A DNA stretch of 61,761 bases, the filler included, from Aduncisulcus paluster (Eukaryota), in the NCBI GenBank assembly GCA_024181965.1. It is 5 parts of 5 records of this genome, joined end to end, with 100 filler letters (N's around TTAATTAATTAA, not from the genome) between each part and the next. Parts side by side here need not be neighbours in the genome. Positions count along the whole stretch, not along the records: positions 51,252 to 61,761 come from BQXS01010798.1; 4 more parts are not named here. One strand, 5' to 3'. Under the pieces are notes generated by a model that had not been told where the DNA came from, made no database searches, and saw only the letters and a program-made list of their open reading frames with translations. Position numbers and translations under genes: made by a program. This document shows, one piece after another, positions 22,885 through 60,300 of the stretch (positions are counted from its first letter, which is position 1; each line of letters begins with the position of its first letter).

Positions 22885-22885
22885 G

Positions 22886-29690: not shown

Positions 29691-29722
<32 letters not shown>

Positions 29723-33534: not shown

Positions 33535-34001
33535 GTAATCACAAAATAAGCGAGTCAAATAAGACGTGTGAATTTCTTTTATTCGTTTCAAAATCTAAAA
33601 TACTATGGATTGTTTTTAATTGTTGAAGAAAGAATATAGGACCTTTGAAAATGAGCAGAAAAGAATCATGACGTCCGAATACTATAGAATATTAGAAACA
33701 TATAATTAAAATACAAGAGAAAGACTATATATAGCATAAAAGTGCAATGAATTCTGAGAAAAAACCAGGAAATAAAATGTTGATGTTTTTTATGATCAAA
33801 AGATCACTGTGGCATTAATTATTCTCAAATAACCTCTCAATTTTGATATAAAAGGCTGGATTTTCACCCAAGACCTAAGATACTCGATATTTCAGTGAAA
33901 TTTGAATTTTATACGAAAAAAATAGGTATATACCAAAACAAAAAGGTTAAATGAGACTTAATACTGGCGATAAAATCGTCGATAGTGCTGTATACGAGTA
34001 A

Positions 34002-34643: not shown

Positions 34644-35178
34644 ATTAATGTTAGTGGGGCAAACGACGAAATTTTTTTCTGGACAACAAAATTCGAGCTT
34701 TCATAAAAATATATTGAATTTATTATGAATATTATTAAAAAATTTATCAAAATATTTGATGAAATATGATAAATATCGAGGGAACAAAATACTATTTTCA
34801 TAGTATGAAATAATTCATCCTCTATTTAGCCTTATAATTCAATAAAAACGTTAAAAAATAAAGTCCATACTGCTATAAGATGGAAAATATTCGCAAAATA
34901 CCCCACCGATTGGTGATCGTATATCATTATAGAGGTGAGATGGATATCTATAAATAACACATGTTGAGGAATAGTATAGAGACCATGGAGGTATATAACT
35001 TCAAACATTTCAGATTCTCTACTATATTGTACTATTCTATACTAACACATCACACATGAGTGCTCCTTCTCATCTCCTTGTATTAGAGTATAGTATAACA
35101 CATAGATCCACTTCTGTCAATGAGTAAACACCATAATTGACAAATATTATATCATAAGACAATGAATAATATTCATAG

Positions 35179-36576: not shown

Positions 36577-36729
36577 AGAGAGCAAATCAACTCGATTTTT
36601 GTTATCGCCGACTGCTTGACTGAATCAACCACCTAATAATAATAAATATAGTACTGAAACGTAAATTATATTTTTTCAAAAATAATTATTTACTCAAAAT
36701 AACCAAGTGGAAGCTTTGGAACTTCAACT

Positions 36730-37473
36730 CTATTTCTTCTTCTTATTCTTCTTCTTTTTCATTTTTTTATCTTGGTTTTGTTCCTTTTCCTTTCCTTTCT
36801 TACTCTTTTTCTTCATTTTAGTCTCCTTCAACGCAGCTTTAGCATCTTTCAATTCTTCAGTAGTAATATCGTCTTTCTTTGCGGCACTTAATTTCTTTTT
36901 AAGTACTTCTTCAACTTTCTTACCCTTTGACTTGGATTTTTTGACCTTCTTGGCCTTTTTCGACTTCTGGGGGGTTTCTTCCTCTTCTTCTGTTTTATCT
37001 CCCATAATATCGTCAAAAGAAATTCCCCACTCTTCCAATTCTGCCAATTGTCGTTTCAATTTCTCAACCATCCGTTTCGCCCGCTTCTCCATTGTTTCGA
37101 CAGAAGCTTCATTAAATTTATGTCTACTAGCGGCAACAGCGGGTTTTGTTCCACAGAATGGCCGTGTAATTTTGTATTTAGAAGAAAAAGTCATAGGATG
37201 GACATCTTTTGGGGGAACACACCGTACCTGGAGCAAATGTCCTTCAAGAATATAATTGTTCAAATTATCCGCAGCAATCTCTGCAACTTCAGGATCTTGG
37301 AACTGAACAAAACCAAAATGTCTACTAATTCCGGTTTTGGGGCTCCTTGACAGACGTAAGTTAGTGATAGTTCCGAATTGAGAAAAAAGAGTTTTTAAGT
37401 TCTTTTCATCGAATTGAGCTGGTAATCTACCAATGTATATAACACCTTCACAATTTTTTTCCTTCCTGGACAT
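36730..37473 (-). CDS. NOP15: Nop15/NIFK-like RRM ribosome biogenesis factor (start near the contig edge)
   Basis: VIYIGRLP..FSQFG..LRLSRSPKTGISRHFGFVQF..VAEIAADNLNNYIL..LLQV, followed by a lysine-rich tail. Confidence 0.85.
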   Translation of the reverse strand: MSRKEKNCEGVIYIGRLPAQFDEKNLKTLFSQFGTITNLRLSRSPKTGISRHFGFVQFQDPEVAEIAADNLNNYILEGHLLQVRCVPPKDVHPMTFSSKYKITRPFCGTKPAVAASRHKFNEASVETMEKRAKRMVEKLKRQLAELEEWGISFDDIMGDKTEEEEETPQKSKKAKKVKKSKSKGKKVEEVLKKKLSAAKKDDITTEELKDAKAALKETKMKKKSKKGKEKEQNQDKKMKKKKNKKKK

Positions 37474-37494
37474 GCCAATACCACCCAAAAGCGT

Positions 37495-37594
37495 NNNNNN
37501 NNNNNNNNNNNNNNNNNNNNNNNNNNNNNNNNNNNNNNTTAATTAATTAANNNNNNNNNNNNNNNNNNNNNNNNNNNNNNNNNNNNNNNNNNNN
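37495..37594. other. Artificial contig linker
   Basis: 44 N + TTAATTAATTAA + 44 N. Confidence 0.98.
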
Positions 37595-38132
37595 TTATCA
37601 CGGGGCGATATTATTCACCAATTCGAAGAAAAAGGGGATTACGCTGCTTCAAGAAAGCACTATCCTAAATATCGTAACACTTACGCGATATAAGAAGCCA
37701 GGAAACAAAAGAACGAAAAGAACGGACAAGATTCGTAGTAAGGGAAGAAAAAAATGAATCCGTGAAAATAATGTTTTCATATGAATTGAAACAAGATAAA
37801 ATATTTTATCGATATTGTCAATTTATGAACGATTAAAGAAGTAGAATCAAAATGACCAAAATGACAGGATATCATCAAAATGCATGGATATTGTATGGTT
37901 AAATATCATCCAAGACTATAAGATATGTCCATTTTACACCAATAAAAAAATGAAGCTTGGTCCAATCATCGGGAAAATCCAAATTGAAACTTTCCAGAAA
38001 CTATTTTCACCTCTATATCTTGGAATATCAGAAATTACACCCTAAAGTGGGTTGAAATGAACTTGTTTTGATCATGAGAAATATTCTCTATCAATACAAA
38101 GATTATTGACGTTTTGATCAATTCACCCAGAT

Positions 38133-38354
38133 ATGGCAAACATATGGTCATTTGGGGGAGCTTTAGTCGCAATATTGTTAATAATTTGCTCATGTACATA
38201 TATAAAAGGGACACCATTCCTCGCTAAGTTTTTTTTGAAAGAGAAAAATGGTTTTAAGGGGACATTCTACAAAACAGCAGTCATTGGAGAGAGATTACAC
38301 GTTATTGTTTGCGCTTTATGTCTCATAGCAGCAATATCTCTTGTCTTCATGTGA
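38133..38354 (+). CDS. KSH1: Protein Kish (TMEM167/Ksh1)
   Basis: 73 aa with ILLIICSCTYI, GFKGTFYK.AVIGERL and a terminal TM helix. Confidence 0.92.
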   Translation: MANIWSFGGALVAILLIICSCTYIKGTPFLAKFFLKEKNGFKGTFYKTAVIGERLHVIVCALCLIAAISLVFM

Positions 38355-38689
38355 TAGATGCTACGATATGATATCTTAGATCCCGCCTCGTCAAAGTATG
38401 ATCATCGTCAGATATTCTTGTAGAAGAAGCATATAAATTTTGGTTGGAACTGTATCAACAGTTTCCATCTTCTGAAGCCAATCCTCCACCTTGTGAAACG
38501 AAATTTAGAACTTTTAAATTACATTGAATGTAGAGAGTGAAAAAGTAAAGTCACTCATAACAGTATAAACGAAAAACATAACTACATTTTATTTCTATTT
38601 TGATTTCCATTGTGTAGATCACCACAATTCCTTTTCTACGGCGTAGTTTTTCTTTCCGGAATTCAATTCCACAAGTTGTGGATTGGTAT

Positions 38690-39930
38690 TTACTTCATCT
38701 TTGGCTCCCATGGTAGAAGAGATAATCGCTCGGCTTCAAGAATTTCAGCTGCCACAGTGAAAATAAGTGAAGACAGGGAGAAAATAATGTTTTTCTTCGG
38801 ATCCCATCTTCCATTTCCATAAATCTCACAGGACACAATATTAGATAAATCAATTGGAAGAAAGAACCATTCAGATTCATGTATGAGTTCTCTAAAATCA
38901 TATTTTCTAAATATCTTCTTTCCATCATAATCAGTAAAAATAAAGAAAAGAGAGGGAGAACTGTGAGTTTTTGTCACACAGATATAAGCCCCTTTAATGG
39001 GAAAAGATATTAGGAAAGGGATGGAAAGATATGACAATTTTACATCGCCTTCCCCTTTTAACATTTTCTGAGCATTTAAACTCTCATCTCTTTCAAGATG
39101 CATTCTTTCAATCTTTCCCTCAACTTTTGAGAATAAAGGATTAATTATCGATGGATCATAACGTGGAATTGGAATAGAAGATCCATTCCCAGGCCCTAGA
39201 AACTTTGATGGAACGACGTGCTGATAAAAAACATCAAAATAAGTCAAATAATAATGAAATTTTGAATAAAAATAAATAATTTATATATATCAACAATTTA
39301 ACATACAGCTTTGGACCATTGAGATTCTAAGCGTCTGCGAACAGAGCATTCTGTCGGAATCTCCTTTCTGAAGAATGCAAGAGAATGGATTTTAGAGCTC
39401 GTAGATTTTGATGATCCATCCTTATTTTGTTCCATTACTTTTATCTCACAATCAATAACATCATTCAAATCAATTGGAAGGAAAAACCATTCATATTTAT
39501 GTTTCGGTTCTGGGAATTCAAAAATACGAGTTTTACGGAATTCACGGCAGACGGAAAAGGAGAGGTGAATAAACGGAGCTCTACAATAATCATCCAAACA
39601 GATGTAAAGACCTTTTAAAGAGCATATAAATGGAAAAGTGAACTCAAGATACGAGAGAGTTAGACTACACTCACCTCTACACATGAGGAATGCCTCCCTG
39701 TCCAAATCACAAGAAAATTTCTCTCTTGATACCAATGAAAATGGAATATAAATGTGTTTCGGGTCATCGCGTGAAAAGGGATCTGAATTTCCTTCTTGGA
39801 CGAACTCTGGCTCCAGACTCAGGATTGTCGGACAACTTGTCCTTCTTGAAGAACGTGCTTTTCGAGGATGTCTTTTGGATTTATGAATAATGATTTTTTG
39901 AGGGAAATTTGTTTTCTCCTTAGAATCCAT
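38690..39930 (-). CDS. Two-domain tandem-repeat protein ('EWFFLPIDL' domain x2), 2 exons: 39930-39307, 39220-38690
   Basis: A phase-0 intron GTATGT..CAG (39306-39221) joins the two ORFs. Both halves share LSYL..PF...KG.YIC...(E/Y)F.E..H..EWFFLPIDL..(V/I)..CEI. Confidence 0.7.
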
Positions 39931-40374
39931 GTCGCAACAACTTATTGAGAAAGAAATTTAATATAAATAAACCAAAAATTACAAAAATTCGGAACAAAAA
40001 TAAAAGTAGAATGTATATTTCTTCTCAAAGTTCTTGATCACGACAAAAACAAGGAAAAATAACCCAACTAAAATCCTGTCGATTTTCCTCATCAAAATCC
40101 TCGATCACCACCAAAAAAGATCGAAAAATAAACATGAAAACATTGTTTTAAACTTGAGACTCTGAAGGTAAACATATTTACTGTTTTTAATTCATTCAAA
40201 CAGACTTATTTATTTGTTAACGGACCTCAGCGGTCATTCCAAAATCCTCAAGTGCAAATATCATCGTAAACCCCAGAAATGAAGAATCATAAGAAAAAGA
40301 TAATATAAAAAATATGAGTGTTGCCGTGGTACAGCAAAAAAAAAAAAAAAACTTGTAAAAATACCGATAAAACA

Positions 40375-43300
40375 TTAAAAATCTCCTTCCATTTGTTTGA
40401 TGTCCTTTTCGACTCTTTCATAGTCCCTCTTTAATGGAGACATGTGAAACCCAAAGTTTTTGCTCAGAAATCCATTTGAAATAGCCTTCCTTTCGGCCGA
40501 TGACATATTTTCGTATTTTGTTTTGAGCTCTTCTTTTTTCAAGGATGGTTTTTCAGCTCGAAGAGCACTGCGGTGTTGATAAGGTCGCACTTGAGAGTGT
40601 GAGAACAACTTAGACCCTAGGGATCCAGAAATTACAGGATTTGGGGAAGACAATCCTGAGGAAGAAGAAGAGGAGGAGGAAGAAGAAGGGAAAGAATGGT
40701 CAGATGCCAGATTGGATGAGAATCTCTTTGCCAATAATTTCGATGGAGATGATCTGACTGAGTGGTATCTTTGTTTTGACCCATGGGCGGGAAGAGATAG
40801 AGATTCGATGGACTCTGGCAGTACTCGATGTTTCAACACTCCATCAATGTCTCCATCTTCAGAGGGAATGAATCCGCGTGTTTTTTCAAGGAGCTGGAGA
40901 GATAATTTAAGCCCAGCAATGACGAGTAATCTCCCACTTTCTCTCAAGTGAGATAGATCAGGAGAAGAGGAGGAAGAGGAGGAAGAGGAGGAAGAGGAGG
41001 AAGAGGAAGACGCTGATTGTCCATAACGAACAAGATTATCAATGAGGTCTCCAAGTTCTTTACATACCCTTGTCAAATGGTTGCGTTCACTCACATTTAA
41101 AGAGTCCTTGAGACACTCACCTACACTGAGGAGATGATCGTGAACACCAGAAAGTTCCTCAATTCGATTATTAACTTGTTCTGAATAAAATAACTTTCCT
41201 TGTTCGATGGAATTTCCCATCACATCGCATATTTTGGTAATTCCTGTACCGATTCCTTTCATTCTTGTAGATTGTTCATAAAATATCTCATCAGAAGGAG
41301 AAAAATCTGAATCAAATGTATTTTTAGATTCCTTATCCAATATTTCACCAATGTTTTCGAGTTCTTTAATATTGTTTTCCAACTCAGAAGCAATATCGGC
41401 ACATTTCGAGAGACCATCTGTGCCAACGACCTGGTCGCCATGCTTAGCACGACTCAAAAGCCCCTGTATTTTGACAATAAGGGCACCAAAGGATTGAGTA
41501 AGGGTTTCGAGCTCACGAGCACGTATTTTCACAAGACGGGAGCACCATCCACCTACCTTTTTATGAACGCTTGAATGCACTCCTCTTTCACTCTCGTGGT
41601 GAACTCGAGTATCCTCAATGGATTTATGAGCTATTTTTAGATCGGAATCTAACTTATTCATGGCAGCTGTGGTGGCTCCGAGGGAGGCTTCAAGACGATG
41701 ACGAATTTCTTCATTCTCATGAAGTTGTTTCTCAAGCAATCCTATTCTATTTTTAGTTTCTGAGAAACTAAGAGTATGGGAAAGTGATAATGTGTCACAA
41801 ATGAGGGAAGGAGTGTCATAAGGTCCCTTGGGTCCACTGGAAGATGTGGAAGAGTCAGTTGATGAAGAGAGAATTCCAACAATATCTTTGGAAAGAGTCA
41901 AAGACTTTCTCAAACGATCTAATTCGGGAGTGGATGACGATGCTCCAGTACCATCCGTTCCAGATGTATCTCCACTGATATGGGGATCTGATTGACTTGG
42001 ATCTGAACTCTTCTTATTTTGCTGAATACTCTCACTGGTTTCCTTCAATTGTGCGACAATATGTTTGTCTCGCGAAACAGAAGTATTTAGAACAACACCA
42101 CGATCCGTTACCCTTCTCTTCATCTCTCCAAGAGCCACAAGAACCTGACCGCCAATGGGATTTCCTTCTAAACGAGACATGACATCCGTGACACGTTGTT
42201 CTGCCTTGTGAAGTTCGAGGATGAGCGACTCACAATGCGCAATGTTACTATCTTTAGAATTGGCATATGCAGATATCAATTTGTGAATACATATGGAGTT
42301 AGAACGTTGCAATTCAGACAAAATCCCAATACTTTTGCGGGCAGTATTAAGAGAGGTCGACAGAGCTGCATTTGCTTTAGTTCTTTGAATAAGTAACTGT
42401 TGTATCTTGTGATGTCCGGATGATTCAGACTTTAGTTTTTCACTCATTTGCTTAGTTTTATCAGTCAATTGCTGGTATTTCCTTGAAACAATTCGATGTT
42501 GTTCCTGAAGACTGGATAATTGGCTATCAAGCGATCTACATTTCATTTGTGAGCTTGATAATTGTTTGTCTATTGTTGAAATGCGTTCAATGAGATCCCT
42601 TTCTCTCTCTTTCTCTCTCTCTCTTTCAAGTTCTCTCTCTCTTTCTCTTTCTCTTTCTCTCTCCAGACCTTCTTTCCTTGAACCATAGGCGATTTCATCC
42701 AAAGTTAGAGTGCTTGACGGTGATATGTTATGTTCAGCCACTTGAGAAGAAGAGGAAGAAGAGGAAGAAGAAGAAGAAGAGGAAGAAGAAGAAGAGGAAG
42801 AGGAAGAAGAGGAAGAGGAAGAACCAGACGGTGGGATAATTGGCATGATATCACGAGATCTGCCTGACCAAGCTCCACGTAACAAGGCATCTAAGATTGA
42901 AATGGCCTTCTTAATGTTAACATAGGAAGCACTCGACAGGAGGGAACTTGGAGGCACCGAGAACATTCCAGCAGAGGGGAGGAATGAGAAGGGGGAAATT
43001 GGGGGAAGAAGAGAAGCATCAGAGTGGTCAAAGAAAGTCAAAGATCCAACGCCTCGACTCCCTGGGATGGACGTGGTGAATGGAGCAAAGCCACCAACAG
43101 AGAGCGCTTCAAAACTGTCGGAATCCTCGAATGAAGAAGAAGGCGAGGAAATAATCTCTTCTTCTTCTATATCTCCGGCTTCATCGCCTTCAATACCAGC
43201 TGTACCGCTTGAAGAAGCACGGAGCATCTGAGCATTCTTTAATTGCATCCTGCGTTGTTCACGATGTTGCTTAGAAAGTAATTTCTTATGTTCTTTCTTT

Positions 43301-44241
43301 CTTTTTTGTCCTTCTCGCCTTCTTCGACGCTTTTCATATTCTTCTTTCTTCTTACGTTGCTCCTCCTCAATTCTCTCTGTTTCTCGGCGTCGATCTTCTT
43401 GTTGTTTCCTCAATTCTAATTCATACTGAACTTTGGCATCTTGGAAACGTTTTTTCTCTGTCTCCCACTTAGATTTGCGGCGTTTATCTTCCTCTTCAAC
43501 ATCACGAAGAGCATCGGTATGGAGAGACAGCAATTCAAGAATGGATCCAAAAATAGAATCTTGTTTGCGCTTCAATTGATTGTTTTGTTCAGATTTATGC
43601 TCATTCTCCTGTTGTAAACTAATAAAATCTTTTTGTTGAGCCTCGAACTGTAATACTTTTTTTTCAAGGTTAAGATTGACTTCAAGCAGTTTTTCTTGAA
43701 GATTTTCTTTTTCTTTCATTATGTGATCGATTGATGTATTCTTATGGGTCACATCAGAACGGAGAGAAGTTAATTCTTCGGAGAGGCGCGAATTCTCAGT
43801 TTCTAATGATGATATTTTCTCAGATAACTCATCTAATTGTTGTTGATGATGCTTTTTTTCACTTTCATAAATGGCTTTTTCTTGTTCTAAAGCAGATGTA
43901 GCACTATGAATTTCCGTTTTCATATTTTCATTCTCCGTTGTCAATTCTTTAAGTTCAATGACTTTTTCTTTCAATGCCTTTTCTAATCTGCCTATTAAAT
44001 CACGATTTCTCAAGTTCATTTCTTCATATCTTATACGATCTTCCTCATGAAGGCGTTTTGCTTCTTCTAGAGCCCTATCTTTCTGCTGAGGCTCACTTTC
44101 TTTCTTTCTAAATAGGCTGATATCAAATGTTTTTTCAAAGGAGGGGAGATGAGTTGAGGTAGGAGAAGAATAAGGTCGATAGCTTCTATATGGGGAAAAT
44201 GAAGCTGTTGTTGGAGGGTTCCAACTAAATTCCTTTGACAT
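40375..44241 (-). CDS. Large coiled-coil protein (1288 aa) with poly-Ser and (ER)n tracts
   Basis: ATG at 44241 and long heptad regions. No ATPase motifs are seen, so it is not called SMC or myosin. Confidence 0.8.
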   Translation of the reverse strand: MSKEFSWNPPTTASFSPYRSYRPYSSPTSTHLPSFEKTFDISLFRKKESEPQQKDRALEEAKRLHEEDRIRYEEMNLRNRDLIGRLEKALKEKVIELKELTTENENMKTEIHSATSALEQEKAIYESEKKHHQQQLDELSEKISSLETENSRLSEELTSLRSDVTHKNTSIDHIMKEKENLQEKLLEVNLNLEKKVLQFEAQQKDFISLQQENEHKSEQNNQLKRKQDSIFGSILELLSLHTDALRDVEEEDKRRKSKWETEKKRFQDAKVQYELELRKQQEDRRRETERIEEEQRKKKEEYEKRRRRREGQKRKKEHKKLLSKQHREQRRMQLKNAQMLRASSSGTAGIEGDEAGDIEEEEIISSPSSSFEDSDSFEALSVGGFAPFTTSIPGSRGVGSLTFFDHSDASLLPPISPFSFLPSAGMFSVPPSSLLSSASYVNIKKAISILDALLRGAWSGRSRDIMPIIPPSGSSSSSSSSSSSSSSSSSSSSSSSSSSQVAEHNISPSSTLTLDEIAYGSRKEGLERERERERERELEREREKERERDLIERISTIDKQLSSSQMKCRSLDSQLSSLQEQHRIVSRKYQQLTDKTKQMSEKLKSESSGHHKIQQLLIQRTKANAALSTSLNTARKSIGILSELQRSNSICIHKLISAYANSKDSNIAHCESLILELHKAEQRVTDVMSRLEGNPIGGQVLVALGEMKRRVTDRGVVLNTSVSRDKHIVAQLKETSESIQQNKKSSDPSQSDPHISGDTSGTDGTGASSSTPELDRLRKSLTLSKDIVGILSSSTDSSTSSSGPKGPYDTPSLICDTLSLSHTLSFSETKNRIGLLEKQLHENEEIRHRLEASLGATTAAMNKLDSDLKIAHKSIEDTRVHHESERGVHSSVHKKVGGWCSRLVKIRARELETLTQSFGALIVKIQGLLSRAKHGDQVVGTDGLSKCADIASELENNIKELENIGEILDKESKNTFDSDFSPSDEIFYEQSTRMKGIGTGITKICDVMGNSIEQGKLFYSEQVNNRIEELSGVHDHLLSVGECLKDSLNVSERNHLTRVCKELGDLIDNLVRYGQSASSSSSSSSSSSSSSSSPDLSHLRESGRLLVIAGLKLSLQLLEKTRGFIPSEDGDIDGVLKHRVLPESIESLSLPAHGSKQRYHSVRSSPSKLLAKRFSSNLASDHSFPSSSSSSSSSSGLSSPNPVISGSLGSKLFSHSQVRPYQHRSALRAEKPSLKKEELKTKYENMSSAERKAISNGFLSKNFGFHMSPLKRDYERVEKDIKQMEGDF
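42745..42823. repeat. (GAA/GAG)n coding microsatellite encoding poly-Ser
   Basis: GAAGAG/GAA run; similar tracts at ~23037-23080, 29686-29742, 40659-40686 and 40962-41010. Confidence 0.9.
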
Positions 44242-44586
44242 AATTGAAATTTAATGAAATATGTAATTATAAATTGTTGAATTTGCCGAAATATGGAAAT
44301 TTTGGGTTTGAATTTTTTGGTACCCTGATAAGTGGTTCAAAATGAATAAAATGCATTATACTTGGATGATTGAATATATATTCCTTCGTCAAATCTCATT
44401 TCTATATCTATTTCCTCCAAGAGATTTTCCCATACGTTTTGGCTTCAGCAAAGAAGAAATCTAACAATAAAAACACGATAGATTCTTAAATTAGAGATAA
44501 AATGTAAAATCGCCGCATTTCCTCTCCCTTATTACTTTTCTCCCCCTTTAAAACGAATTCAATCCATTTTCTTTGGCTGATTGCAG

Positions 44587-45489
44587 ATGGCTAAAGGTGA
44601 AACGATCTCATTAGATACTTTCAATGATGATTGGGATGAGGAAGAAGAGGAGGAGGAGATTGATGAAGGAAAATTGAGGGAAATTAAAGAGCAGCACCCC
44701 CACGCAACCAACGTGTTGTATATTCGTAATATCCATTACGATGTCACAGACTCTGATTTATTTTCTCTTTTTGAGAAAAATGGAATCTGCCCAGAAGATA
44801 TTGTTCTTGTAAAAGAAGAGTCTGGCAAATTCACTGGTAATGCTGTTGTTCAATTTGGATCTGTCGACGATACTTATCTTTCTTTTATGAAAATCGATGG
44901 TCAGAAGCTTTTCGGACGTGAAGTTTCCCTTTCCGAGAATAAGGACTTCCGTAGAGGTTTTAGTGGTGGACCTCGTTCAGGGGGTGGTGGATTTGGTTCT
45001 AGGGACTCCAAACCTATGGTTAACTTCGCTGATGTTCGTAAGAGTGGCCCAAGGGAGGGCAGAGGAGATGCATTTAAGAGTACTGGACACTCTCAAGGTT
45101 ACCGTGAAAGTCGTGGGTTTTCGGGTGATCGCGAACGTGATCGTGATCGTCCTCGTCGTGAAAGACCCGCCCCTATGGGTTTTTCTCGCTCATCTATGCG
45201 TAGTAGTGATGACATTGAGAAAGCTAGACGTGAGGTTGAAGAGAAGGAGAAGAAACGTATCCACGAAAGGGAAAGGAGAAGGATGGAGAGGCAACCACTT
45301 CCATCCTTCTCGAGGGATCAGATGAAATCCGCAAAAGATGTGGAGGAAGAAAAGGCCAAACATGATAAACCCTTTAAAAAGGACTCTAAGAGTATCAGGA
45401 AGAGTTCTTCTGTCCACAAGAAGAAGGATGATAAAAGACAACCAAAAAGGGAGAGTACTAATCCCTTTGAAGCTTTGAGAGGTAAATAA
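44587..45489 (+). CDS. Translation initiation factor eIF4B-like RRM protein
   Basis: The N-terminal KGETISLDTF resembles eIF4B KGKTISLTDF. It has one RRM (LYIRNI..GNAVVQF), an R/D/G-rich region and a terminal NPFEAL motif. Confidence 0.65.
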   Translation: MAKGETISLDTFNDDWDEEEEEEEIDEGKLREIKEQHPHATNVLYIRNIHYDVTDSDLFSLFEKNGICPEDIVLVKEESGKFTGNAVVQFGSVDDTYLSFMKIDGQKLFGREVSLSENKDFRRGFSGGPRSGGGGFGSRDSKPMVNFADVRKSGPREGRGDAFKSTGHSQGYRESRGFSGDRERDRDRPRRERPAPMGFSRSSMRSSDDIEKARREVEEKEKKRIHERERRRMERQPLPSFSRDQMKSAKDVEEEKAKHDKPFKKDSKSIRKSSSVHKKKDDKRQPKRESTNPFEALRGK

Positions 45490-45865
45490 TCATTTTTTTT
45501 TCTTTGATAATGAATTCTGTATGTGAATATGACCAAGGAGACTGTTTTCCATTATTTTTTAAAAAATAGTAGAAATAAATTTAAAAATAAATTCAAAATT
45601 TAAAAGATTATTTATTTTTATGGCATATCACAGGGAAATTTCCAATATTTTCATCTCGACAGATTTTTTCCCTTGTGATGAAATAACTCGAAATATTCCG
45701 AAAATTTGTTTTAAAATGGAATGTTACATACAAGTAAAAAATGAAATCATTTTTAAACTGTGAAAAAAATAATTTGAGCGCACGTACGATTGATTTTTTG
45801 TTCATTCGAATAGACTTTTGGCAACATCAGGATATCCTTATAGGAATTAATTATATTGTTCCAAT

Positions 45866-51151: not shown

Positions 51152-51251
51152 NNNNNNNNNNNNNNNNNNNNNNNNNNNNNNNNNNNNNNNNNNNNTTAAT
51201 TAATTAANNNNNNNNNNNNNNNNNNNNNNNNNNNNNNNNNNNNNNNNNNNN
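51152..51251. other. Artificial contig linker
   Basis: 44 N + TTAATTAATTAA + 44 N. Confidence 0.98.
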
Positions 51252-51947
51252 TATTCTTTTCGGAGAATACCTTTCAACAAGACAAGATTGGATGGATGGA
51301 GAGAAATTTCCGTTGTTACCAACGCAAAACCTCCACGAATGGGTAAAATTACTCGGAGAGAGGAGGGAATGGATGGTAAAGAAAGTTGTTGAGGCTCAGA
51401 AGAAAGTAGCAGAAGGAAGACTCGAGAGAAGTGAAGAAGGTGAATGGCCTGCTTTGCACTCGTATGTCCTTGTGAGACCGAAAAAGAAGCCACCCAAGTT
51501 ACATCCAAGATGGGCTGGTCCTGTTGAAGTTGTAAAACTATTCAAAGATAGGAACTCACTGGAGGTGAAGTGGTTATCAGGAAAAGAGGAAAATGAGGTC
51601 ATATCTCTACGAAGAATTGTGAAGTTCAGAAGTCAAGACTATTCGCTGGAAGACCTGAAGAAACTCGCTCAGCTTGACGATGAGGCATATGTAGTCGAGG
51701 AGATAAGAGGTCATCGAATGGGTGATGATGGATTAGAACTTTTAATCAAATGGTTAGGTTACGAAGAGGTCTTTTGGGAGCCAAAAGATGGATTAAAGAC
51801 AGTTCCATTGGTAATGGAATATTGTCAGGAAAAGGAGCTTGAGTAAGCATCCGGTGGGTGCCTCTCTAAAGGAGAGAAGGGTGTAATATAAGTAAATTTG
51901 CTAACGGTATAAATAGTATCGGTTTGCTTTATTTTAGAATCATCACA
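51252..51947 (+). mobile_element. 3' end of a chromovirus-type Ty3/Gypsy element: integrase GPY/F region, chromodomain, PPT and 3' LTR
   Basis: KLHPRWAGPVEV, then chromodomain YVVEEIRGHR..LLIKWLGYEEVFWEP, stop at 51846, polypurine tract AAAGGAGAGAAGGG (51868-51881), then TG. Confidence 0.9.
51882..51947 (+). repeat. Putative 3' LTR, 66 bp
   Basis: It starts TGTAAT right after the PPT and ends ATCACA (imperfect inverted ends), with TATAAATA inside. Its CA end coincides with the point where the opposing integrase is cut. Confidence 0.6.
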
Positions 51948-54900
51948 GTCCCACTGAATCTACTGCGATTTCCTTGAATGCTTGACTAGTGGAGATGGTA
52001 GCAAAATGTCCTGAGTCTTTTTTCAGTCTCATTTTTGCACAGTAAACACAATGACTCGATAACTCCTTTGCAAGTGCGTTCATTCCAGGAAAATTGATCC
52101 CAGAGGATCTCATAGAGTACAGAATTTTCTCCGATGAAGCGTGGCCCAGCCTCACATGTTCCTTGTAGATAATCTTGTCTTTAATTGATAATGCATCATC
52201 CCCTAATATAATTTCGTTCTTTTTGTTAACGAAAATTCCGTTAATGCATTTTCCTTCAGATAATAAGTCTTTTGGTAACCCATTTTGATAATTAATGATC
52301 TGGTCGACCACTGATTCTTCCGGGTTGTTCCTTGCTTCGACATCGTCTGTCTGAACGTCTATTGCTTTGAGAAAAGACGCTGAACCCACTTGATGTGTTC
52401 TGGATAGCAGGTCGGCAAACGCGTTGGACCTCCCAGCGATATGTTTGATTGAAAACTCAAACGGAGATATCTTGAGTCGCCAACGGAGAAGTTTCGGTAC
52501 TTCAGACTGATATATATATGTGAGATTGCGGTGGTCGGTTTCTATAAGGAAAGGTTTACCCAGCAAGAAATACGTGTTCGAGACGATCCCATACATTACT
52601 CCAAAAGCCTCCTGCTCAATCGTGCTCCATTTTTGCTCTGCCGGGGTGAACTTCTTAGAAAACAAGTTTATGAGATGTAATTCTCCATCTACCTCCTGCA
52701 GTAACACTCCACCCATACCGAAAGTACTTGCATCCGTTCTCAAAATGAATGTGCCGCCTGGTTTTACGTGATGCAGAGTAAGCCGTTTCTCCAGCTTTTC
52801 CAATATCGAGTTCCAAGCCTTCTGCTGATCTTCGCCCCATGAAAAGGGGTATTGCTTGACATCAGTCTGGTTATAGGCTCCGATAACCTCGAATAGTCTG
52901 GTATGAATTGACGGAGGAAGTTGATGGATCCCACCAACTTCTGCACTCCCTTCACTGAGAATGGCGGTGGCATGTTCCGTAGATTCTCCAACCTTGTTTC
53001 ATCGACTCGTCGCCCGTTTTTGTCTATAATGAACCCCAGGTACTTTACGTCATTCATACCGGTAAAACACTTCTGAAAATTGAGAATTAAGTTCACTCGC
53101 CCCAATCTCTCCAATACCTCCGTCAGATTGGTTAAGAAACTTGCCTTATCATGACCGAAAACCAAGATATCATCGAGATATACTAGGCACTTGGCGCCAA
53201 TTATGTCGTGGAGTTGTTCATTGAGACACCGTTGAAAATGGGCCGGGGCTGTCTTCAGGCCGAAAGGCATGCGGCTCCACTCGAACAGCCCCCAAGGAGT
53301 CGTAAATGCCGTCAGAGGTCTCGAAGATTCCTCCACCTCGATATTATAATACCCTGACTTGAGGTCAAGGGCCGCAAAGATGGACTGGCCAGAAAGAGCA
53401 GCGAATAATTGGTCCTGTCTGGGCAGCGGATAGCTGTCAGCGATTGTTTTCTTGTTAAGGACTTTATAATCACAGCACATCCTGACATCACCTGTCTTCT
53501 TGTTAACCAGGACAAGCGGGGCGGCGAACCGGCTAGATGATGGATGAATAAAGCCTTGTACCCGTAACAAATCAATCATCTCCTTGACTTCGGACTGCAA
53601 ATGGTACGGAATTAGGCGGAATGGGCTTCGAGCGATTGTGTCCGGTTGGACTTCCAATTTAAAGCGGTCTACCGTGGCGGGTTGTGTACGGTCGATTCTA
53701 CTTTCATACTGATTGAGAAGCACTTGAACGTCCTCCTTGATCTCCGGAATATCACAGGTCCATCCCTTCGTGGAGGATGTATCGAACGGTTGTGGAATAT
53801 TTAAATCGATCTCATTTTCCAATTCCGATTTGCTTGTGTTACTTTTTGACGGTTGTTTCCATTCAATCAGCCCAGCTTGTTCGATGCATTTTCCTGACAA
53901 TATCACTTTATGCCGATCCCCCAGGTCGTCCAAAACGTAGCATGCTTCCTGGATGGCAAGGGAGGCACCATCGAATCCCTCGATGGGTACTATAACATTT
54001 AAAACATGATTTGTCTCCACCATTTGTCCCGTTGCTGTGGATAACTTCTTAGATATCACCCGTTCAGTCCGTTCTTCCCATCCGTTAATGAAACTTCTAT
54101 CTATTACAGATAGGTTCGCTCCTGTATCCAACAAGATAGTTCCCAGTCGTTCTACACCTCCCGAAACCGGTTTAACCCAGGCTTGTCGCTCCGCCGCGTT
54201 CGATGATAAACTTTTAAGGTACTTACTGGAGGCTTTACTCACTGCTTGAGAAGGAGCCTCCTGACAGGCGCTGGCGTAGTGACCAATCCTTTTACACTTG
54301 TGGCACCTGACTTTCGGGAAAAAACGGTGATAACGAGGGTCGTGATGCTTGATGAAGGGCTTGCGGCCACGGTGCTTTCTTCCGATCGTTTGGACATCCT
54401 CAGAATCCGGTTTCCCTTGGGTTTTCTTATCTTGGGAGAACCTTCGCTTCCCACTACGTCTCGGACAGTCCTTCCACTTGTGTCCTGGTTGGCCACACTT
54501 GAAGCATCGAATGACGTGGGAAGTTTGTGGAGGGGTTGTCAAGGCTCGTTCCGCTTCGAAAGCTAGCATTCTTTTCACCTCACCCACAGAGATTTGGGTA
54601 ATTTTTGGCACGTCATAGGTGTCAGACGGAATCATTGCGGATACTCTTTCTTGAAGTCGCTGGGGTTCCAAGCCATCCATAAAAAGCTTGACAACCTTCT
54701 TAGGGTCAGGTTTTGCCAATGATCGGCTCAGTTCTTTGGAGAATTGTTGAGAAAACTCCAGGAAGGCATCCATGCTCAGGGGTGATGACATACGAACCGC
54801 CCGGAGCTTATCGTATAATTCGATGGTGGAGGAAGATGAGAATAGACTCTCAACTTCAAGAAAGGCGTGGTCTCGTTGGGTTTGCAGCGTGAAGTACCCC

Positions 54901-55205
54901 ACTCCGGAAATAGTGGTTATGAAGGATAGTGCTGACACCGAACAGAAATGTGGCCAAGGTTTCTTTCCTCCCAGAGAAAGATAGTGCTGAAATTCAGCCA
55001 CGAACTGCGTCCAAGATTCGGTTGTAACCTGGTCGAGGAAGGGTTGAATAATTTCCTCAGATAACAGCTTAGACTTTCCACTCATGGTTAATACTATTAA
55101 TTAGTAGTACTAATATTAATATTGTTATAACTCTAATGAGTTGGTCAAATTTTATTAAATAAACACACTGTTGTTGTTCTAAATATAGAACATGAGAATC
55201 TAACA
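51948..55205 (-). mobile_element. Ty3/Gypsy LTR retrotransposon: 5' LTR, gag (2 CCHC), PR, RT, RNase H, truncated integrase; frameshift at ~52842
   Basis: CFKCGQPGHKWKDC and CHKCKRIGHYASAC, LLDTGA, LDLKSGY, MPFGL, YLDD, TDAS, ETDHRNL, ADLLSR, integrase HVRLGH..CVYC, ending at VDSVG. Confidence 0.93.
55123..55205 (-). repeat. Putative 5' LTR, 83 bp
   Basis: On the minus strand it reads TGTTA...TAACA (5-bp inverted ends) with TATATTTA and AATAAA inside. It ends 37 nt upstream of the gag ATG at 55085. Confidence 0.6.
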
Positions 55206-55222
55206 CATGCTCTGCTCATCTT

Positions 55223-55568
55223 TTGAGTACAGTGGTTCAACACTATATCACCTTCTTTTTTGAACAAATTGAAATCTTTTTAGAGGATCTTAATATTGTT
55301 TTAAGTTCAGGATCCCAGGAAAATAGAACTTTGTGTTCTCTATTAGGTATTCAAGTACCTCGATATACAAAAAATCAATGGACGTCTCTTCTGGAGGAAT
55401 ATTCCAAAGTTTGTTCTTCGTGGGATGATATATTATCTTGTTTAAAATTTAAAAGGCAAACAGATCAAGTCAAATCTTGCCAAACGTTTTTACTGAACGA
55501 ATCATATAGAAAATTCAATAGTTCGTTGATGAAAGAGTTCATTCCGTGTGCTTTGGAGGTACAGTCCA
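55223..55568 (+). pseudogene. Possible hAT transposase internal fragment
   Basis: VPRYTKNQWTSLL and EFIPCALEVQS loosely match the hAT TRWxS and LxP...LQS segments. Confidence 0.35.
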
Positions 55569-55885
55569 TGTTGTTACAGAAAGTTCATATCGAGTTGGGA
55601 CATGCATCAGAAAAGTTGATGGTAAGAGTTCTAAAGGAGAGAGGTTTTACTTGGTTAGGCATGGTAAAACAAGCGAAAGAATTAAGACAGAAATGTGTCC
55701 GGTGCCAGAAAGTTTTCAAGGGCAAAGCAGTACCTATCAGCCATCATTTGAAGGCTTCCGCTGTTTCGAACACATATCAGTCGATACAGTTGGTCCCTTG
55801 CCAGAAGACAACAACGGATATAAACATTTATTGGTCGCAATTGACGATTTTTCTCGTTTTGCTGTCATTGTCCCATTACATAATG
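55569..55885 (+). mobile_element. Gypsy integrase fragment (HHCC plus start of catalytic core), frameshifted
   Basis: HIELGHAS..CVRCQ, then FEHISVDTVGPLP..YKHLLVAIDDFSRF in the next frame. Confidence 0.85.
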
Positions 55886-56408
55886 TAACCCGATTCAGAT
55901 ATAAATACGGACGAATAGCCCAGATTCAGTTCAATATCTGTGATACTTTTCTTTTCTCGAAAACATTTGTATCATACGCGTCAGAGTCAAAATATGTAAT
56001 AACACATCTAATACAAATGAACGTACTAAAACAATCCATTTTTGTTTGCCTCCTTGTGCATTATATTGCATACTGGCAAAAGAACTCATGCCAGTCATCT
56101 TTCGAAAACTTAGTCAAAAAGGGTGGTTTTAATATCGGTGACATACTTATTTAATCAGTGAATTCACTGTAATTTAAGTAAAGTGTATGTAGGTGTGTCA
56201 ATTTACTTGTATGTACAGTATATGTCTACATTTATCATTCGTGCTTAACTTCGCACATCAACATTCATATATTGATAGACCATAATCCATGATCTATACC
56301 AATAATATTAAGATCAATATTACATGGGGGGAAATTTTCGTCTGAAAATGGTCCCAGAGCAAACATGGACCAATTTCACAGACCAAATTTGATCAATTTT
56401 TGATCCGA

Positions 56409-56465
56409 GACCAAAAGTGGATCATTAAACATTGATCTCCAACCAAATTTGATCCACTTTTGGTC
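56409..56465. repeat. Perfect 16-bp inverted repeat with a 25-nt spacer, within a cluster of degenerate GACCAAATTTGATC repeats
   Basis: GACCAAAAGTGGATCA (56409-56424) and TGATCCACTTTTGGTC (56450-56465). Confidence 0.9.
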
Positions 56466-56734
56466 ATTTCCTAAAATAGTGATTTTTATTCGAAATAAAG
56501 CTTTGAGTTTTGATTTTCTCAAAATCTTTTTTTAGATCATTTTGTGCTTTGACAAATTTTCCAGGCGTGGATTCACTCGCAAGACCTAGGGACGTCTCTC
56601 CTGTTATTGACTGAATATTTGACCGGTCAACTTTCTCAAATGTTTCTAATCTGGTTGAGAGTCTAAGAATGGCAGACGACATAATTTCCATCGCTCTTTG
56701 TTGCTCTGCTAACATCTTTCGTAAACATTCAACT

Positions 56735-56990
56735 TCACTGGCATAAGAACTTCTACTTGGCTGGATAAATTTCTTATCCATTAAATCATCGATAATCTCC
56801 TTAACTGTCTGTTGGAATTTATAAGGAACCCTCCTTGGTGGATGTGACACTACCTCTTCCTTCACTAATTCCAACTTCAACGGACGAACTTCTATTGGGT
56901 CATCAGGTCTGACCTTATCAGCATAGTGTTTTACACTTCCTTCTGCTTTTTCTTTGATCTCCTGATCCTCCCAATGAATTACTGAAGCTA
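56735..56990 (-). mobile_element. Gypsy RT N-terminal fragment
   Basis: PPRRVPYKFQQTVKEIIDDLMDKKFIQPSRSSYAS; boundaries approximate. Confidence 0.75.
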
Positions 56991-56995
56991 TAGAT

Positions 56996-57480
56996 ATGTT
57001 TACAAGGAAGATTCCACTTCCGTCAGTAAGAAACATCCTTCTGGCAGGTATGAGGATTCATTCCATCACCTCCCTTGACGTGGCCTTAGGCATCGCCCTG
57101 GAAGCGTTGAAAGACGCAAGGAAGACACATCATGCTCCGAGATCAAGGAAACAATCATCAGGAGGAGGCAAGAGAAGGAGATCCACGAAAACTTGCAATT
57201 ATTGTTCGAAGGTCGGATACGATGAAACTGAGTGCAGGAAGAAGATGAGAGACGAAGCTCAGAAGAAACAGAAAGGGAGGAATGCAAGCTCAAGACATAT
57301 CTCTATCGAGAACGAAGAAGATTCTATGGAGGCTAGAAGTGTTGCAGCAACCTTGGGATGCCAGAGAGGGAAATGTACTGCTATGTGGAAGTAGCAGGAA
57401 AACCCGTCGATGTTGTGACACTTGCAGACACAGGGGCTGACTGCAATCTAGTCCATCCAACATTCTTCAAGGAGATCGAA
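56996..57480 (+). mobile_element. Gypsy gag-protease fragment, frameshifted
   Basis: Degenerate knuckle CNYCSKVGYDETEC and aspartic protease motif LADTGADCNLV; boundaries approximate. Confidence 0.7.
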
Positions 57481-58498
57481 TCTTCGGTGCCAATCTCATC
57501 CTCAACAACGTCATCAATGGTTTCTTTCTATCCTCTGGCTTTGCATATACCGTCAGCGCCCTACACACTTGCAGAAATGCAGTCCTCAATCCTCTTTGTT
57601 CCTCCTCTCACTACATGCTTTGTGGTCCGAAACAAATTTCTCGAACTGCTGCACATTCAAAACCTTCAAGATAGGGGGTTCCAGATCAGCATATATGCAC
57701 GGAGAACCAGGATTTGGTCGAGGAGCTACTGGGTCCATAAGCGAGATCCCACCGGGATCCGCAAGATCTACACGACGCATTGGAGATTGATGAGGTTGAA
57801 AAGGTGGTAACTTAACATCATCCATGGGTATCGTGCTGACTACTGGAGGGGGAGGGCCTATAGAATCCTCTTCATGTGTTCTTGAAAACAACTCCTTCCT
57901 CACGTTGAGGGTTCGAAGGATCCACTGCGGCATCAGGTTGTGCCGAAACGATAGACTTCATCATGGCTTTGAACATTTGTTTGCGACACCGCATAACCCA
58001 AGATCAGTGATAACGATATCCATAAAGTGACTTGACTCTCAATGACACAACTGCTCTTTTCACCATGCCCCACCAATGTGTTACACTTCTTTATGAGTTT
58101 TTCGGCGTTAGGTATTTTCTTGACAGCATCGGGCGTAATGATATTAACAGAGGACCCTGTATCTATCAGTGCTGTCAAAGGAACGAATCCACTTTCCCTG
58201 TCTGAACCTAAAGATATTAGACGGCGAGATGACGTGATACCAGTGGATATTTTCTTTAGATCCTGATTATCTTTCTTTTTCCAACATTTATTTTCAGTAT
58301 GTCCTATTCTAACACAGAAAGAACACTGGGGGATCCGAGTGGGAGAATCTTGAACTAGAGCTCGAGTTAGAAACTCTCGGATGCGATCTTGACGAAGAGC
58401 TTGACTTGTGACTCCTGCCAGATTCCAAAGACGGTGTTGAATGACGTTGGGATTGTGGTTTCCGCGGAGCTGAAGTGTGCTGATCCGTACCTACAGAC
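57481..58498 (-). mobile_element. Two Gypsy fragments: gag CCHC plus protease (~58498-58010) and a gag N-terminus (~57930-57481)
   Basis: CSFCVRIGHTENKC is in frame with ALIDTGSSVNII. LEPPILK..FEKFVSDHK resembles the gag start of the 58578 element (LKPPFL..WSKFMNDHK). Confidence 0.7.
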
Positions 58499-60300
58499 AT
58501 TCTCAGGGATGTCCTATTTATAGAACTGTTTATTCAAATAATTTTGGCTTTGTTTACAGTATTAATACTCAGTTATTATGGCCGAATTATTAAAACCACC
58601 TTTTCTAACAAGGTTTTCAAAGGAAGATTGGTCTAAATTCATGAACGATCACAAGATTTATTCTGCTCGAGGTGGAAAAGGAACCTTGTCACACGTTGAT
58701 TGATGTCCACGTGTTATCAGCGTTGCGACCTGCAACAAAATGTGATGGGGACACAAACCCAGAGGAATTTCTGGTTGCGATTAAGAAGTTCTTTGGAGCT
58801 GGATCTACCCAGGGCTTTTACGACCAATCAAGACGAATTAAGCTGAAAAAGATGAAAGAACCAGAACTAATACAATACGTAGCCGCGTATCAGGAAATAA
58901 TCGCTTCGAACCCTGACGTTGGAAATGATGATACAGTCGGACGTTTATTCTTGGGAGGTTTACGAAATCAGAGACTGAAAGATCGCATAAGAAGTGAAGC
59001 GGACACGGCCGGGAAAGAAGACGACATCTCTTTTTTCATGGCTCAGGCTTTTATTGAATTATCTGAAATGATTCAGATCCGGGACGAAGTTTTAGCACAT
59101 GCATCGGAATCGAAATCAAGCTGAAACGTCGTGCAAGCGACAAAGGTGAGCATCGTGGTGAATGGCAGGGTGAAAAGAAACATTCCCAACAAAGGGATGG
59201 AAAACAGAAACATTTCCGTTGTTATCACAAAGATTTTAGAAAATCAGACCGGGCTAGAACAACACCAGGAGGTGAGACAAATCAAAGGAGATTTTACATA
59301 AAAAGACTGCTGAAGCGAAGGTGAGTAAATCTCCGGATGAGTATATGACACTGGTAAATAATGCAGGAGATGAGCAGAAAGTGTTTATTTTGCTAGACAC
59401 TGGATGTTCAATGTCTATCATTAACCGGAGAATAATAGCTAATTCCTTCGTAATTTCACGAGAAGTACTTCCGGAATATCAGCTAGAATTAGCCGATGGA
59501 AGTTGCATGGAAGTGTCAGAGAAATGGAAGATATTGGTTAAAGCAAACGGAGATTTTGGTACAGACTTATATTTTCATGAATGGGTAATACCGATTATAA
59601 TGAAAATAACCAACATGATCTTTTACTATGTTTTAATACAATAGTACGGTTAGATCTCCTGGGAGTGAGATTTCTTGTCATATCGGATCATACCGAGGAT
59701 TGGGATGCAGATTGGGAGATTTACTAAATCAAGCAAGTTTGATGAAGAGATCATATCAGAAGAGTTAAGAAGGGAATTGATACCCATTGTGAAGGATTAT
59801 ATTGAAAATGTTAATCCAGAACAACCGGTTTTAATGGAGCCAAAGATAATTGAGGTGGCTGAAGACACCCCATCTATAGCATACCGAGCTCGGAGACTTC
59901 CGGCTAAACATGACTGAATTTGTCAGAGAAGAGATTGACAGATTAATGGAAAAAATGATTATAATACGTGCGAAAAGCAGATTTGCCTCGCCAATACTCG
60001 TCATCCCTAAGAAAGGAAATAAGTTTCGCATACTATACTGTACTATAGGCGTTCGCGGTAATATATAGTCTTAGAAAGAACATACAGTTTTGCTTGGGCT
60101 GGCATTTCCGAATTGAGACCGATCATAGGAACTTGACGTTTGTATTGAAAAGCGAGTCAGCAAAGTTAATGGGATGGAGACTAGAGCTTGCAGAATACAC
60201 GTTTGAAATTGCTCACGTATACGGAGTGGATAACAAGCTGGCCGATTATTTATCTAGAAAACATCAACCAGTTAAAGAAACTGTCACCGCAAAATCGTAA
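58499..60300 (+). mobile_element. Degenerate, internally deleted Ty3/Gypsy element: LTR remnant, gag (ATG 58578), PR, start of RT, end of RNase H
   Basis: gag MAELLKPPFL..WSKF..YSARGGK is similar to the 55085 gag. LLDTGCSMSII; FASPILVIPKKGNKFRI jumps to FRIETDHRNL..NKLADYLSR. Several frameshifts. Confidence 0.85.

Follow-up and report, generated by a model that had tools for sequence, protein, structure and literature searches.

A 12-nt palindrome at the primer-binding position of two Ty3/Gypsy elements of Aduncisulcus paluster

Sequence material and data

A 61.8-kb stretch of DNA from Aduncisulcus paluster, a free-living fornicate metamonad cultured at 17.5 °C (PMC9933649), was analysed as a whole (hereafter, the window), and the present report concerns two Ty3/Gypsy retrotransposons in it, in which a 12-nucleotide (nt) palindrome lies between the 5′ long terminal repeat (LTR) and gag, at the position of the primer-binding site (PBS). 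The draft assembly of this organism was made from Illumina data only and has an N50 of 4.6 kb (PMC9933649). The window is not one molecule but five contigs joined by four artificial linkers, and features that seem to cross a linker, as well as the four TTAATTAATTAA palindromes, are joining artefacts.

1102-1201, 22785-22884, 37495-37594 and 51152-51251: artificial linkers, each of 44 N, TTAATTAATTAA and 44 N

Both LTR junctions sit in the last contig (51252-61761, 10,510 nt), and Gypsy-like coding pieces were confined to 51.3-60.3 kb of the window. Element 1 lies on the minus strand with its junction at 55123, and element 2 lies on the plus strand with its junction at 58558.

Depths and boundaries were obtained from contigs of a DNA run (X1), which were matched to the window at a likeness of at least 80% in a single alignment with summed depths. 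Contigs of a second run (X2), which is only guessed to be RNA, gave thin cover (8 of 30 bins). The figures for X1 and X2 contigs, for differing letters and for loose ends rest on the matches listed. Contigs of this resource are assembled from words of 31 letters and end at points of divergence between copies.

The two elements and their coding regions

The features of the two elements are as follows.

51946-52998, minus strand: element 1 RNase H and integrase zinc finger (Pfam RT_RNaseH 1.2e-25, Integrase_H2C2 0.0054)
52764-55085, minus strand: element 1 open reading frame (ORF) of 773 aa for gag (CCHC), protease (DTG) and reverse transcriptase (RT) (Pfam zf-CCHC 1.1e-7, RVT_1 6.4e-34)
55086-55111, minus strand: remainder of the element 1 leader, not alignable to element 2
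55112-55123, minus strand: element 1 palindrome AATATTAATATT, a perfect 12-mer whose first A is the last LTR base
55123-55207, minus strand: element 1 5′ LTR, 85 nt, TGTGTTAG...TTATAACA, with TATA-like CTATATTTAGAAC and TGTTTATTTAATAAAATTTG
58476-58558, plus strand: element 2 5′ LTR, 83 nt in this copy, TGTG...TTGTTTACA, containing CCTATTTATAGAAC and TGTTTATTCAAATAATTTTGG
58558-58569, plus strand: element 2 palindrome AGTATTAATACT, a perfect 12-mer whose first A is the last LTR base
58570-58577, plus strand: last 8 nt of the element 2 leader, up to the gag ATG
58578-60267, plus strand: element 2 internal region, a decayed copy with a gag N-terminus homologous to that of element 1

Judged by their domains, both elements are members of Ty3/Gypsy (Metaviridae), as the original prediction had proposed. 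Element 1 carries the CCHC zinc knuckle in gag and the pol order protease-RT-RNase H-integrase (domains by Pfam, order by tblastn with full Gypsy polyproteins), and the best PDB match of its RT was Ty3 RT (4ol8, 2.4e-51). Its protein is 99% identical to the NCBI entry "hypothetical protein ADUPG1_007713 [Aduncisulcus paluster]". The RNase H/integrase part is frameshifted relative to the RT and is cut off just past the first catalytic D region. In element 2, gag is frameshifted after 41 codons, with stops in its translation; a protease remnant (approximately 59270-59665) and an RNase H remnant (60049-60267) are 27% and 51% identical to element 1, respectively, and the RT is missing from this copy (tblastn). 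The gag N-termini of the two elements align (BLASTP 1e-7, 11 of 34 residues identical, approximately 30%), and because of this alignment and the 99% identity of the element 1 model with the NCBI protein, the ATGs at 55085 and 58578 were taken as the true gag starts.

Judged by depth, the element 2 family comprises tens of copies (about 50), with 119 of 274 matched X1 contigs at least 99% alike, and another copy of this type keeps its reading frame at the point where that of the window copy is shifted. The element 2 site thus belongs to a family that multiplied successfully. An element 2-type gag is also found in the gene model P0011 (NCBI ADUPG1_014023, on another contig), in which approximately 690 residues of an unrelated protein are fused to the gag from residue 13; the probable cause of this fusion is an intron wrongly called across the edge of a retrotransposon.

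The junction between LTR and leader

On the minus strand, the LTR of element 1 ends in ...GAGTTATAACA (last bases, TTATAACA) and is followed by ATATTAATATT, AGTACTACTAATTAATAGTATTAACC and then the ATG; on the plus strand, the LTR of element 2 ends in ...GGCTTTGTTTACA (last bases, TTGTTTACA) and is followed by GTATTAATACT, CAGTTATT and then the ATG. Checking of the sequence bore out that a perfect 12-nt palindrome starts on the terminal A of each LTR, and that the gag ATG follows 37 nt (element 1, 55085) and 19 nt (element 2, 58578) past the LTR end. The two 12-mers are unlike only at positions 2 and 11, which are mutual partners; G2 and C11 are the sole G:C positions of the 12-mer and are placed symmetrically, and 10 of the 12 bases of the site are A or T. 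It also proved correct that TGG does not follow either ACA: none is present within 20 nt of either LTR end, so that a PBS for a tRNA 3′ end is lacking there, and the first TGG lies in or at gag (55080-55078 in element 1 and 58579-58581 in element 2). Such a PBS is usual in Ty3/Gypsy elements but is no requirement for membership of the family.

A degenerate 14-mer covering both junctions (ACARTATTAATAYT) gave exact matches only at these two places and one match with one mismatch at 60599, against an expected count of 0.16; three matches were reached in 1 of 100 shuffles. The match at 60599 lies in an AT-rich spacer without LTR similarity, and it was rejected as a third site. Among the X1 and X2 contigs, the dominant other copy of element 2 differs by one extra nt after 58570 and one missing nt at 58573, and no differing letter fell within the element 2 palindrome among the differences listed for other copies.

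Boundaries of the LTRs

The LTRs were placed at 55207 to 55123 and at 58476-58558 from one alignment. No LTR pair occurs in the window, since both elements are without their 3′ ends there (no direct repeat of at least 80 nt was found, and self-BLAST gave no such pair), but the assignment of ACA as the LTR end in both elements is supported by homology between the LTRs, by steps in depth and by loose ends of contigs. A local alignment of the two LTRs from which the terminal A and the palindrome had been left out scored 32, a value reached by 0 of 2000 shuffles (mean 15.4, maximum 30) and by 0 of 2750 genomic windows; the aligned blocks were ATTCTC, ATGTyCTATwTwTAGAAC, TGTTTATTyAA and ATAAnTTT. 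When a profile of the two LTRs was run on the window with nhmmer, just the two inputs scored, the next hit having an E value of at least 1.4.

In element 1, three bins up to 55122 (including 54982-55122) have the depth of a single unique contig, 1114.9, and the bin 55123-55263 has a depth of 7487.3. This step implies that extra copies of the LTR-like stretch exist and that none of them crosses 55123. In element 2, a unique flank contig (57387-58510) stops 30 nt inside the repeat, and loose ends before 58481 were seen in at least 8 X1 and at least 2 X2 contigs, with a median loose length of 13 in X1. Other copies of element 2 carry approximately 9 additional bases (TACGGACAT) before 58481, which brings the LTR to approximately 92 nt. 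The consensus of the X1 loose ends reads ...AAAAATAAAAGGACT followed by TGTGTTACGGACAT, that is, a purine tract before a TGTGTTA start that matches TGTGTTAG of element 1 at 55207; the 5′ end of the element 1 LTR was provisionally set by this likeness. The depth at 58527 was 132,247 versus 57,410-75,512 in the internal bins, and this ratio of approximately 2:1 is the expectation for two LTRs per element; the place-wise depths at 58570-58640 were lower (20,587-37,621). Furthermore, one X2 contig spans 58506-58558 and ends exactly at 58558, and a break after this base is what an LTR end predicts, because contigs break where copies diverge. A contig start near 58526-58528 was considered as a transcript start and rejected, a common T/C difference at 58527 being what breaks the contig.

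Conservation of the palindrome

From the LTR core to the ATG, the best local alignment of the two elements was ACA plus the palindrome, with 12 of 14 positions matching, and its score was reached by 98 of 5000 shuffles (p approximately 0.02). Outside this segment, neither the LTR tails (24 and 13 nt) nor the leaders can be aligned, and both palindromes are perfect and in identical register with the last LTR base. These results suggest that the palindrome at the PBS position is probably a genuine cis element under selection. The original prediction had also read the difference between the two 12-mers as a compensatory change. The differences do fall on the partner positions 2 and 11, but they are weak evidence, because G2/C11 is the sole G:C pair and is symmetric, so that two ordinary transitions suffice and decay would keep the symmetry as well.

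Pairing of the site with itself and with the LTR

The self-duplex of the 12-mer was calculated at -6.8 kcal/mol at 37 °C and -11.2 kcal/mol at 17.5 °C for element 1, and at -11.4 and -16.2 kcal/mol, respectively, for element 2, values that make it reasonably stable at the culture temperature. As a hairpin, the 12-mer alone gave 0.0 kcal/mol at 37 °C and -0.85 kcal/mol at 17.5 °C, and the hairpin-based priming offered earlier as one option is not favoured against these self-duplex values.

When the 14-mer was paired with its own LTR, the strongest duplex reached -2.4 kcal/mol in element 1 (shuffle mean -3.56) and -3.1 kcal/mol in element 2 (shuffle mean -4.99), and 76% and 91% of 1000 shuffles, respectively, were as good or better. 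The extra TACGGACAT of other element 2 copies also showed no match to the site when the letters were compared. The earlier statement that the LTRs hold no complement of the Tf1 type was thus upheld for the whole length of each LTR.

In the predicted fold of the element 2 leader, the palindrome is at the apex of a larger stem and at the dimer interface (-39.0 versus 2 × -13.4 kcal/mol), and the predicted dimer of element 1 bypasses the palindrome at 37 °C. A long stem of element 2, between AAATAATTTTGGC in the LTR and GGCCGAATTATT at the gag start, would imply a TGG-type site 20 nt downstream. It was rejected: the LTR would need to reach 58580, contrary to the contig and depth boundaries, and the letters on the gag side follow from coding homology with element 1 (E-LL/II-K/Q-P), in which the equivalent pairing amounts to only 5 bp.

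Comparison with known priming systems

The closest published case is the fungal GalEa clade of Copia elements, which, according to the main text of PMC5445492, has no PBS but a conserved palindrome to which the last A of the 5′ LTR belongs, with no Tf1-like complement found and no mechanism proposed. In GalEa as in both elements here, the site directly after the 5′ LTR is palindromic only together with the final LTR A (A+CTGATCAGT or A+CTAATTAGT in GalEa), the LTRs are of the TGT...CA type, and neither a tRNA-type PBS nor a Tf1-like complement is described in that text. The variants of the GalEa site given there mostly affect the partner positions 3 and 6, and paired G/A and C/T changes keep the symmetry (PMC5445492). 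GalEa differs from the present case, in what is given there, in being a Copia lineage of fungal hosts with a 10-nt palindrome; here, the elements are Ty3/Gypsy, the host is a metamonad, and the palindrome has 12 nt and a different sequence. Membership of the two elements in this Ty1/Copia clade is contradicted by their Gypsy domain order and by Ty3 as the best relative.

In the same main text, a second conserved block, of complementary sequence, lies 12-41 bp downstream in GalEa elements and gives a hairpin whose A/A mismatch is fixed. The candidates for such a block here were AGTATTAA, 16 nt downstream in element 1, and ATTATTAAAAC, inside gag in element 2, and their duplex energies were within chance. 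At 37 °C, a complement as good or better was obtained for element 1 in 19.8% of 2000 shuffles and 9.4% of 374 contig windows, and for element 2 in 65.6% of shuffles and 51.3% of contig windows. The signs of a second block of the GalEa type were accordingly not beyond chance.

Something similar to the GalEa site, and compared with it, is shown by miniature terminal-repeat retrotransposons (TRIMs) of bivalves in the relevant part of PMC6934838. In the literature searched, the term "Conserved Hairpin Site" was found only in portions of PMC5445492 (fungal GalEa) and PMC6934838 (bivalve TRIMs), and no account of LTR retrotransposon priming in fornicates was found. The suggestion in the original prediction of a possibly undescribed priming mode was therefore overstated. 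The palindrome idea is not wholly new, and the site is a variant of a published, unexplained kind of primer site in a new superfamily (Ty3/Gypsy) and a new host lineage (metamonad).

Elements of the Tf1/sushi type resemble the present elements in lacking TGG, in having a primer site of approximately 11-12 nt that abuts the LTR, and in a presumed primer that is the RNA of the element, as far as the sections of PMC5006619 and PMC5445492 on these elements go. In Tf1, however, the first 11 nt of the transcript pair in cis with a non-palindromic PBS, whereas the site here is complementary only to itself, and scoring over the whole LTR revealed no complement of the site. The Skipper elements, chromoviruses of dictyostelids, have a degenerate polypyrimidine tract and no palindrome after the LTR in the portion of PMC5006619 that describes them, in contrast to the mixed A/T sequence after both LTRs here. 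The dimer-initiation palindromes of retroviruses and Ty1 are, as generally understood, likewise short self-complementary leader sequences that pair two genomic RNAs; they lie in hairpin loops, are additional to a tRNA PBS and do not prime, whereas the palindrome here occupies the PBS position itself.

A possible role in priming

In reverse transcription, everything upstream of the primer 3′ end is copied into the LTR, and the primer 3′ end anneals 0-3 nt from the LTR end. Since no more than a few nt can separate the primer from the end of the LTR, the palindrome is at the priming spot, and the placement of the site where the minus-strand primer anneals, as originally put forward, agrees with this established logic. 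In element 2, the palindrome would be the primer site because the leader has only 19 nt and the palindrome is its sole conserved part. The best explanation overall, which we hold tentatively, is that the 12-nt palindrome may be the working equivalent of a PBS in this Ty3/Gypsy lineage of A. paluster. Priming independent of tRNA is, by a little, to be expected.

How such a site might act can be outlined as follows, although this particular scheme is rather doubtful. The anatomy of the junction is as described above, and the pairing, cutting and priming steps are proposed. Two co-packaged genomic RNAs would pair through the palindrome into a 12-bp duplex; because the palindrome is self-complementary, the co-packaged second genome would always carry the matching strand. 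RNase H would then cut one strand at the 3′ edge of the duplex, a step borrowed from Tf1, in which an RNase H cut of an RNA duplex reportedly supplies the primer. The new 3′-OH, paired to the terminal A of U5, would be extended through U5 and R of the partner RNA. Plus-strand priming would be ordinary, since polypurine tracts abut the LTRs.

A wider form of this proposal is more doubtful again. It holds that dimer priming may be reciprocal, in that the 5′ fragment of a cut genome, or a 12-nt oligonucleotide cut at both edges, primes the other genome, and that fungal GalEa Copia elements and metamonad Gypsy elements may share this solution, independently or from a very old origin. Reciprocal priming in both lineages would explain why the palindrome starts exactly on the terminal LTR A in each.

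Several points weigh against a priming role of the palindrome. The evidence is thin: it consists of two junctions in one genome, one of which comes from the dead, single-copy and truncated element 1, and the selection was post hoc, by a reader seeking oddities. The LTR ends were derived from the behaviour of the contig graph and from summed depths of one alignment, and the window holds neither an LTR pair nor a 3′ LTR of either element nor a target-site duplication. The pairing with the LTR was scored over the whole LTR, wherever the transcript may start, and the tRNA search covered the 61.8-kb window, which contains no tRNA gene. Palindromes of 12 nt are not rare in AT-rich DNA; 36 perfect ones were counted in the window, of which 4 are in linkers and 9 overlap in one TA run, leaving approximately 23 independent ones per approximately 61 kb. 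In composition-matched shuffles of the junction segments (3000 each), a palindrome of at least 12 nt arose in 4.3% for element 1 and in 0.6% for element 2. GC-to-AT decay of element 1 would also yield a perfect palindrome. As to the scheme itself, the donor genome would be left in two pieces by a cut after the palindrome, and one RNA of the pair needs to stay intact.

Alternative explanations

The alternative that survives best, although it is unlikely, is that a host RNA, such as an internal or 5′-half tRNA fragment as in the copia/Ty5 type, binds here to an ordinary short PBS whose palindromy is incidental. A match of 11-12 nt is a normal PBS length, and the limited reach of the tRNA search leaves room for such a primer. 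Internal-tRNA PBSs that start with AT-rich complements of the anticodon loop do exist, as exemplified in PMC5445492, in its section on such sites, by FunCo1, in which ATTAAGAGTCT matches an internal part of tRNA-Lys. However, the high A/T content of the site is unlike the stems of cytosolic tRNAs as they are generally known, and an even-length perfect palindrome cannot, by geometry, centre on an arm with a 5-bp stem and a 7-nt loop. Moreover, one host RNA cannot fit both elements perfectly, as they differ at two positions of the site, and these positions are not partners in a tRNA arm. A search against Rfam found nothing in the contig at E ≤ 1.

It is less probable that the palindrome is a signal for dimerisation or packaging, or a promoter-proximal or initiator DNA element, and that priming takes another route. 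Palindromes are understood to drive genome dimerisation in retroviruses and Ty1, the predicted fold of the element 2 leader puts the palindrome at the dimer interface, and a site 19-37 nt upstream of the ATG is where a promoter element of a metamonad could sit. On the other hand, the predicted dimer of element 1 does not use the palindrome at 37 °C, and the 90 nt upstream of 13 other long ORFs in the window, inspected by eye, showed no similar motif. The element 2 leader, with 19 nt and nothing else conserved, has no room for a separate PBS, and the geometry of reverse transcription demands that the primer anneal at this very spot.

About equally improbable is a combination of chance and common descent, by which an AT-rich stretch in two related, decaying elements acquired symmetry without function. 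The frequency of 12-nt palindromes in this DNA, the yield from the element 1 shuffles and the post hoc selection all favour it, as does the fact that the "compensatory" pair is obtainable through GC-to-AT decay. A degenerate pattern of LTR plus palindrome also matched 15 unrelated metagenome contigs. Against this, ACA plus palindrome agrees at 12 of 14 positions between flanks (LTR tail of 13-24 nt, and leader) that are not alignable, both copies are perfect in the same register with the last LTR base, and the element 2 junction is that of a successful, high-copy element. The same arrangement is also found independently in the fungal GalEa elements, as the main text of PMC5445492 describes them.

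Ordinary self-priming of the Tf1/sushi type, with the site being met by the folded-back 5′ end of the transcript, is very improbable: at least one neighbouring element is a chromovirus with a Chromo domain, many fungal chromoviruses self-prime according to the passage of PMC6934838 on them, and the scoring took in the whole LTR, wherever the transcript may start, but the 14-mer pairs with neither LTR better than with shuffled LTRs, and TACGGACAT gives no match either.

Relatives of the two elements were also sought in metagenomes, and no usable candidate was obtained. A protein-based scan matched 18 stretches, 0 of which were confirmed. The DNA pattern of LTR core, ACA and palindrome matched the 15 loci mentioned above, all of them unrelated AT-rich sequences, 7 of which were one conserved coding stretch of marine microbes.

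Significance of the palindromic site

The textbook modes of LTR-element priming are tRNA priming and Tf1 self-priming. Skipper, fungal GalEa and bivalve TRIMs fit neither of them, and a mechanism is lacking for all three. The same layout in a protist Gypsy lineage and a fungal Copia clade suggests a recurring functional solution and not a curiosity of a single clade. The host of the palindromic site is culturable and deep-branching, and the element 2 family, whose copies number in the tens and are nearly identical, whose LTRs are tiny and whose leader has 19 nt, offers a compact system in which the primer on strong-stop cDNA could be mapped. The default limits of common LTR finders are not reached by elements with LTRs of 66-92 nt and no TGG PBS, which will therefore probably be overlooked or wrongly annotated, the gag fusion in P0011 being an example. 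Its position, its conservation and the independent fungal parallel make the palindrome worth a genome-wide follow-up.

Other features of the window

A third Gypsy element, a chromovirus, is inserted in the element 1 integrase, and the stretch between elements 1 and 2 contains further Gypsy pieces. Their features are as follows.

51292-51947, plus strand: 3′ end of the third element, inserted just after the DSVG motif of the element 1 integrase
51292-51846, plus strand: chromodomain ORF of the third element (Pfam 1.9e-7)
51868-51881, plus strand: polypurine tract of the third element, AAAGGAGAGAAGGG, 14 nt, from a purine-tract scan
51882-51947, plus strand: LTR of the third element, 66 nt, TGT...ACA
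55196-56154, plus strand: RNase H/integrase fragment
56716-56961, minus strand: protease-RT linker piece
56996-57810, plus strand, and 57933-58490, minus strand: ORFs with a gag knuckle and protease-like sequence

The third element shows that very short TGT...ACA LTRs beside a normal polypurine tract are usual in this genome. To our knowledge, LTRs of 66, 85 and approximately 92 nt are near the shortest known.

The region between the two elements (55196-58490) is a mosaic of Gypsy fragments of unique depth on both strands, which are linked through repeated segments such as 55546-55827 (depth approximately 19,000-21,000). Either insertions are nested here or part of the mosaic is an assembly chimera. 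At 56316-56499 there is a short repeat of very high copy number, with a summed depth of 35,916-45,862 versus approximately 1,200 for unique sequence, and it is also present in X2. This repeat holds a perfect 16-nt inverted repeat, GACCAAAAGTGGATCA and TGATCCACTTTTGGTC, at 56409-56424 and 56450-56465, and may be an element resembling miniature inverted-repeat transposable elements.

In other contigs of the window, two overlapping ORFs with RT domains (RVT_1 2.8e-12 and 8.4e-17) were found at 19644-22783 on the plus strand, with a GC content of 0.476 versus approximately 0.38; they were unmatched by the Gypsy queries and thus belong to a different class or family of retroelements. Inverted matches with 76-82% identity were detected between 10104-10650 and 23654-24603, and because the two arms lie in separate contigs, they are probably paralogous genes and not a structural inverted repeat.

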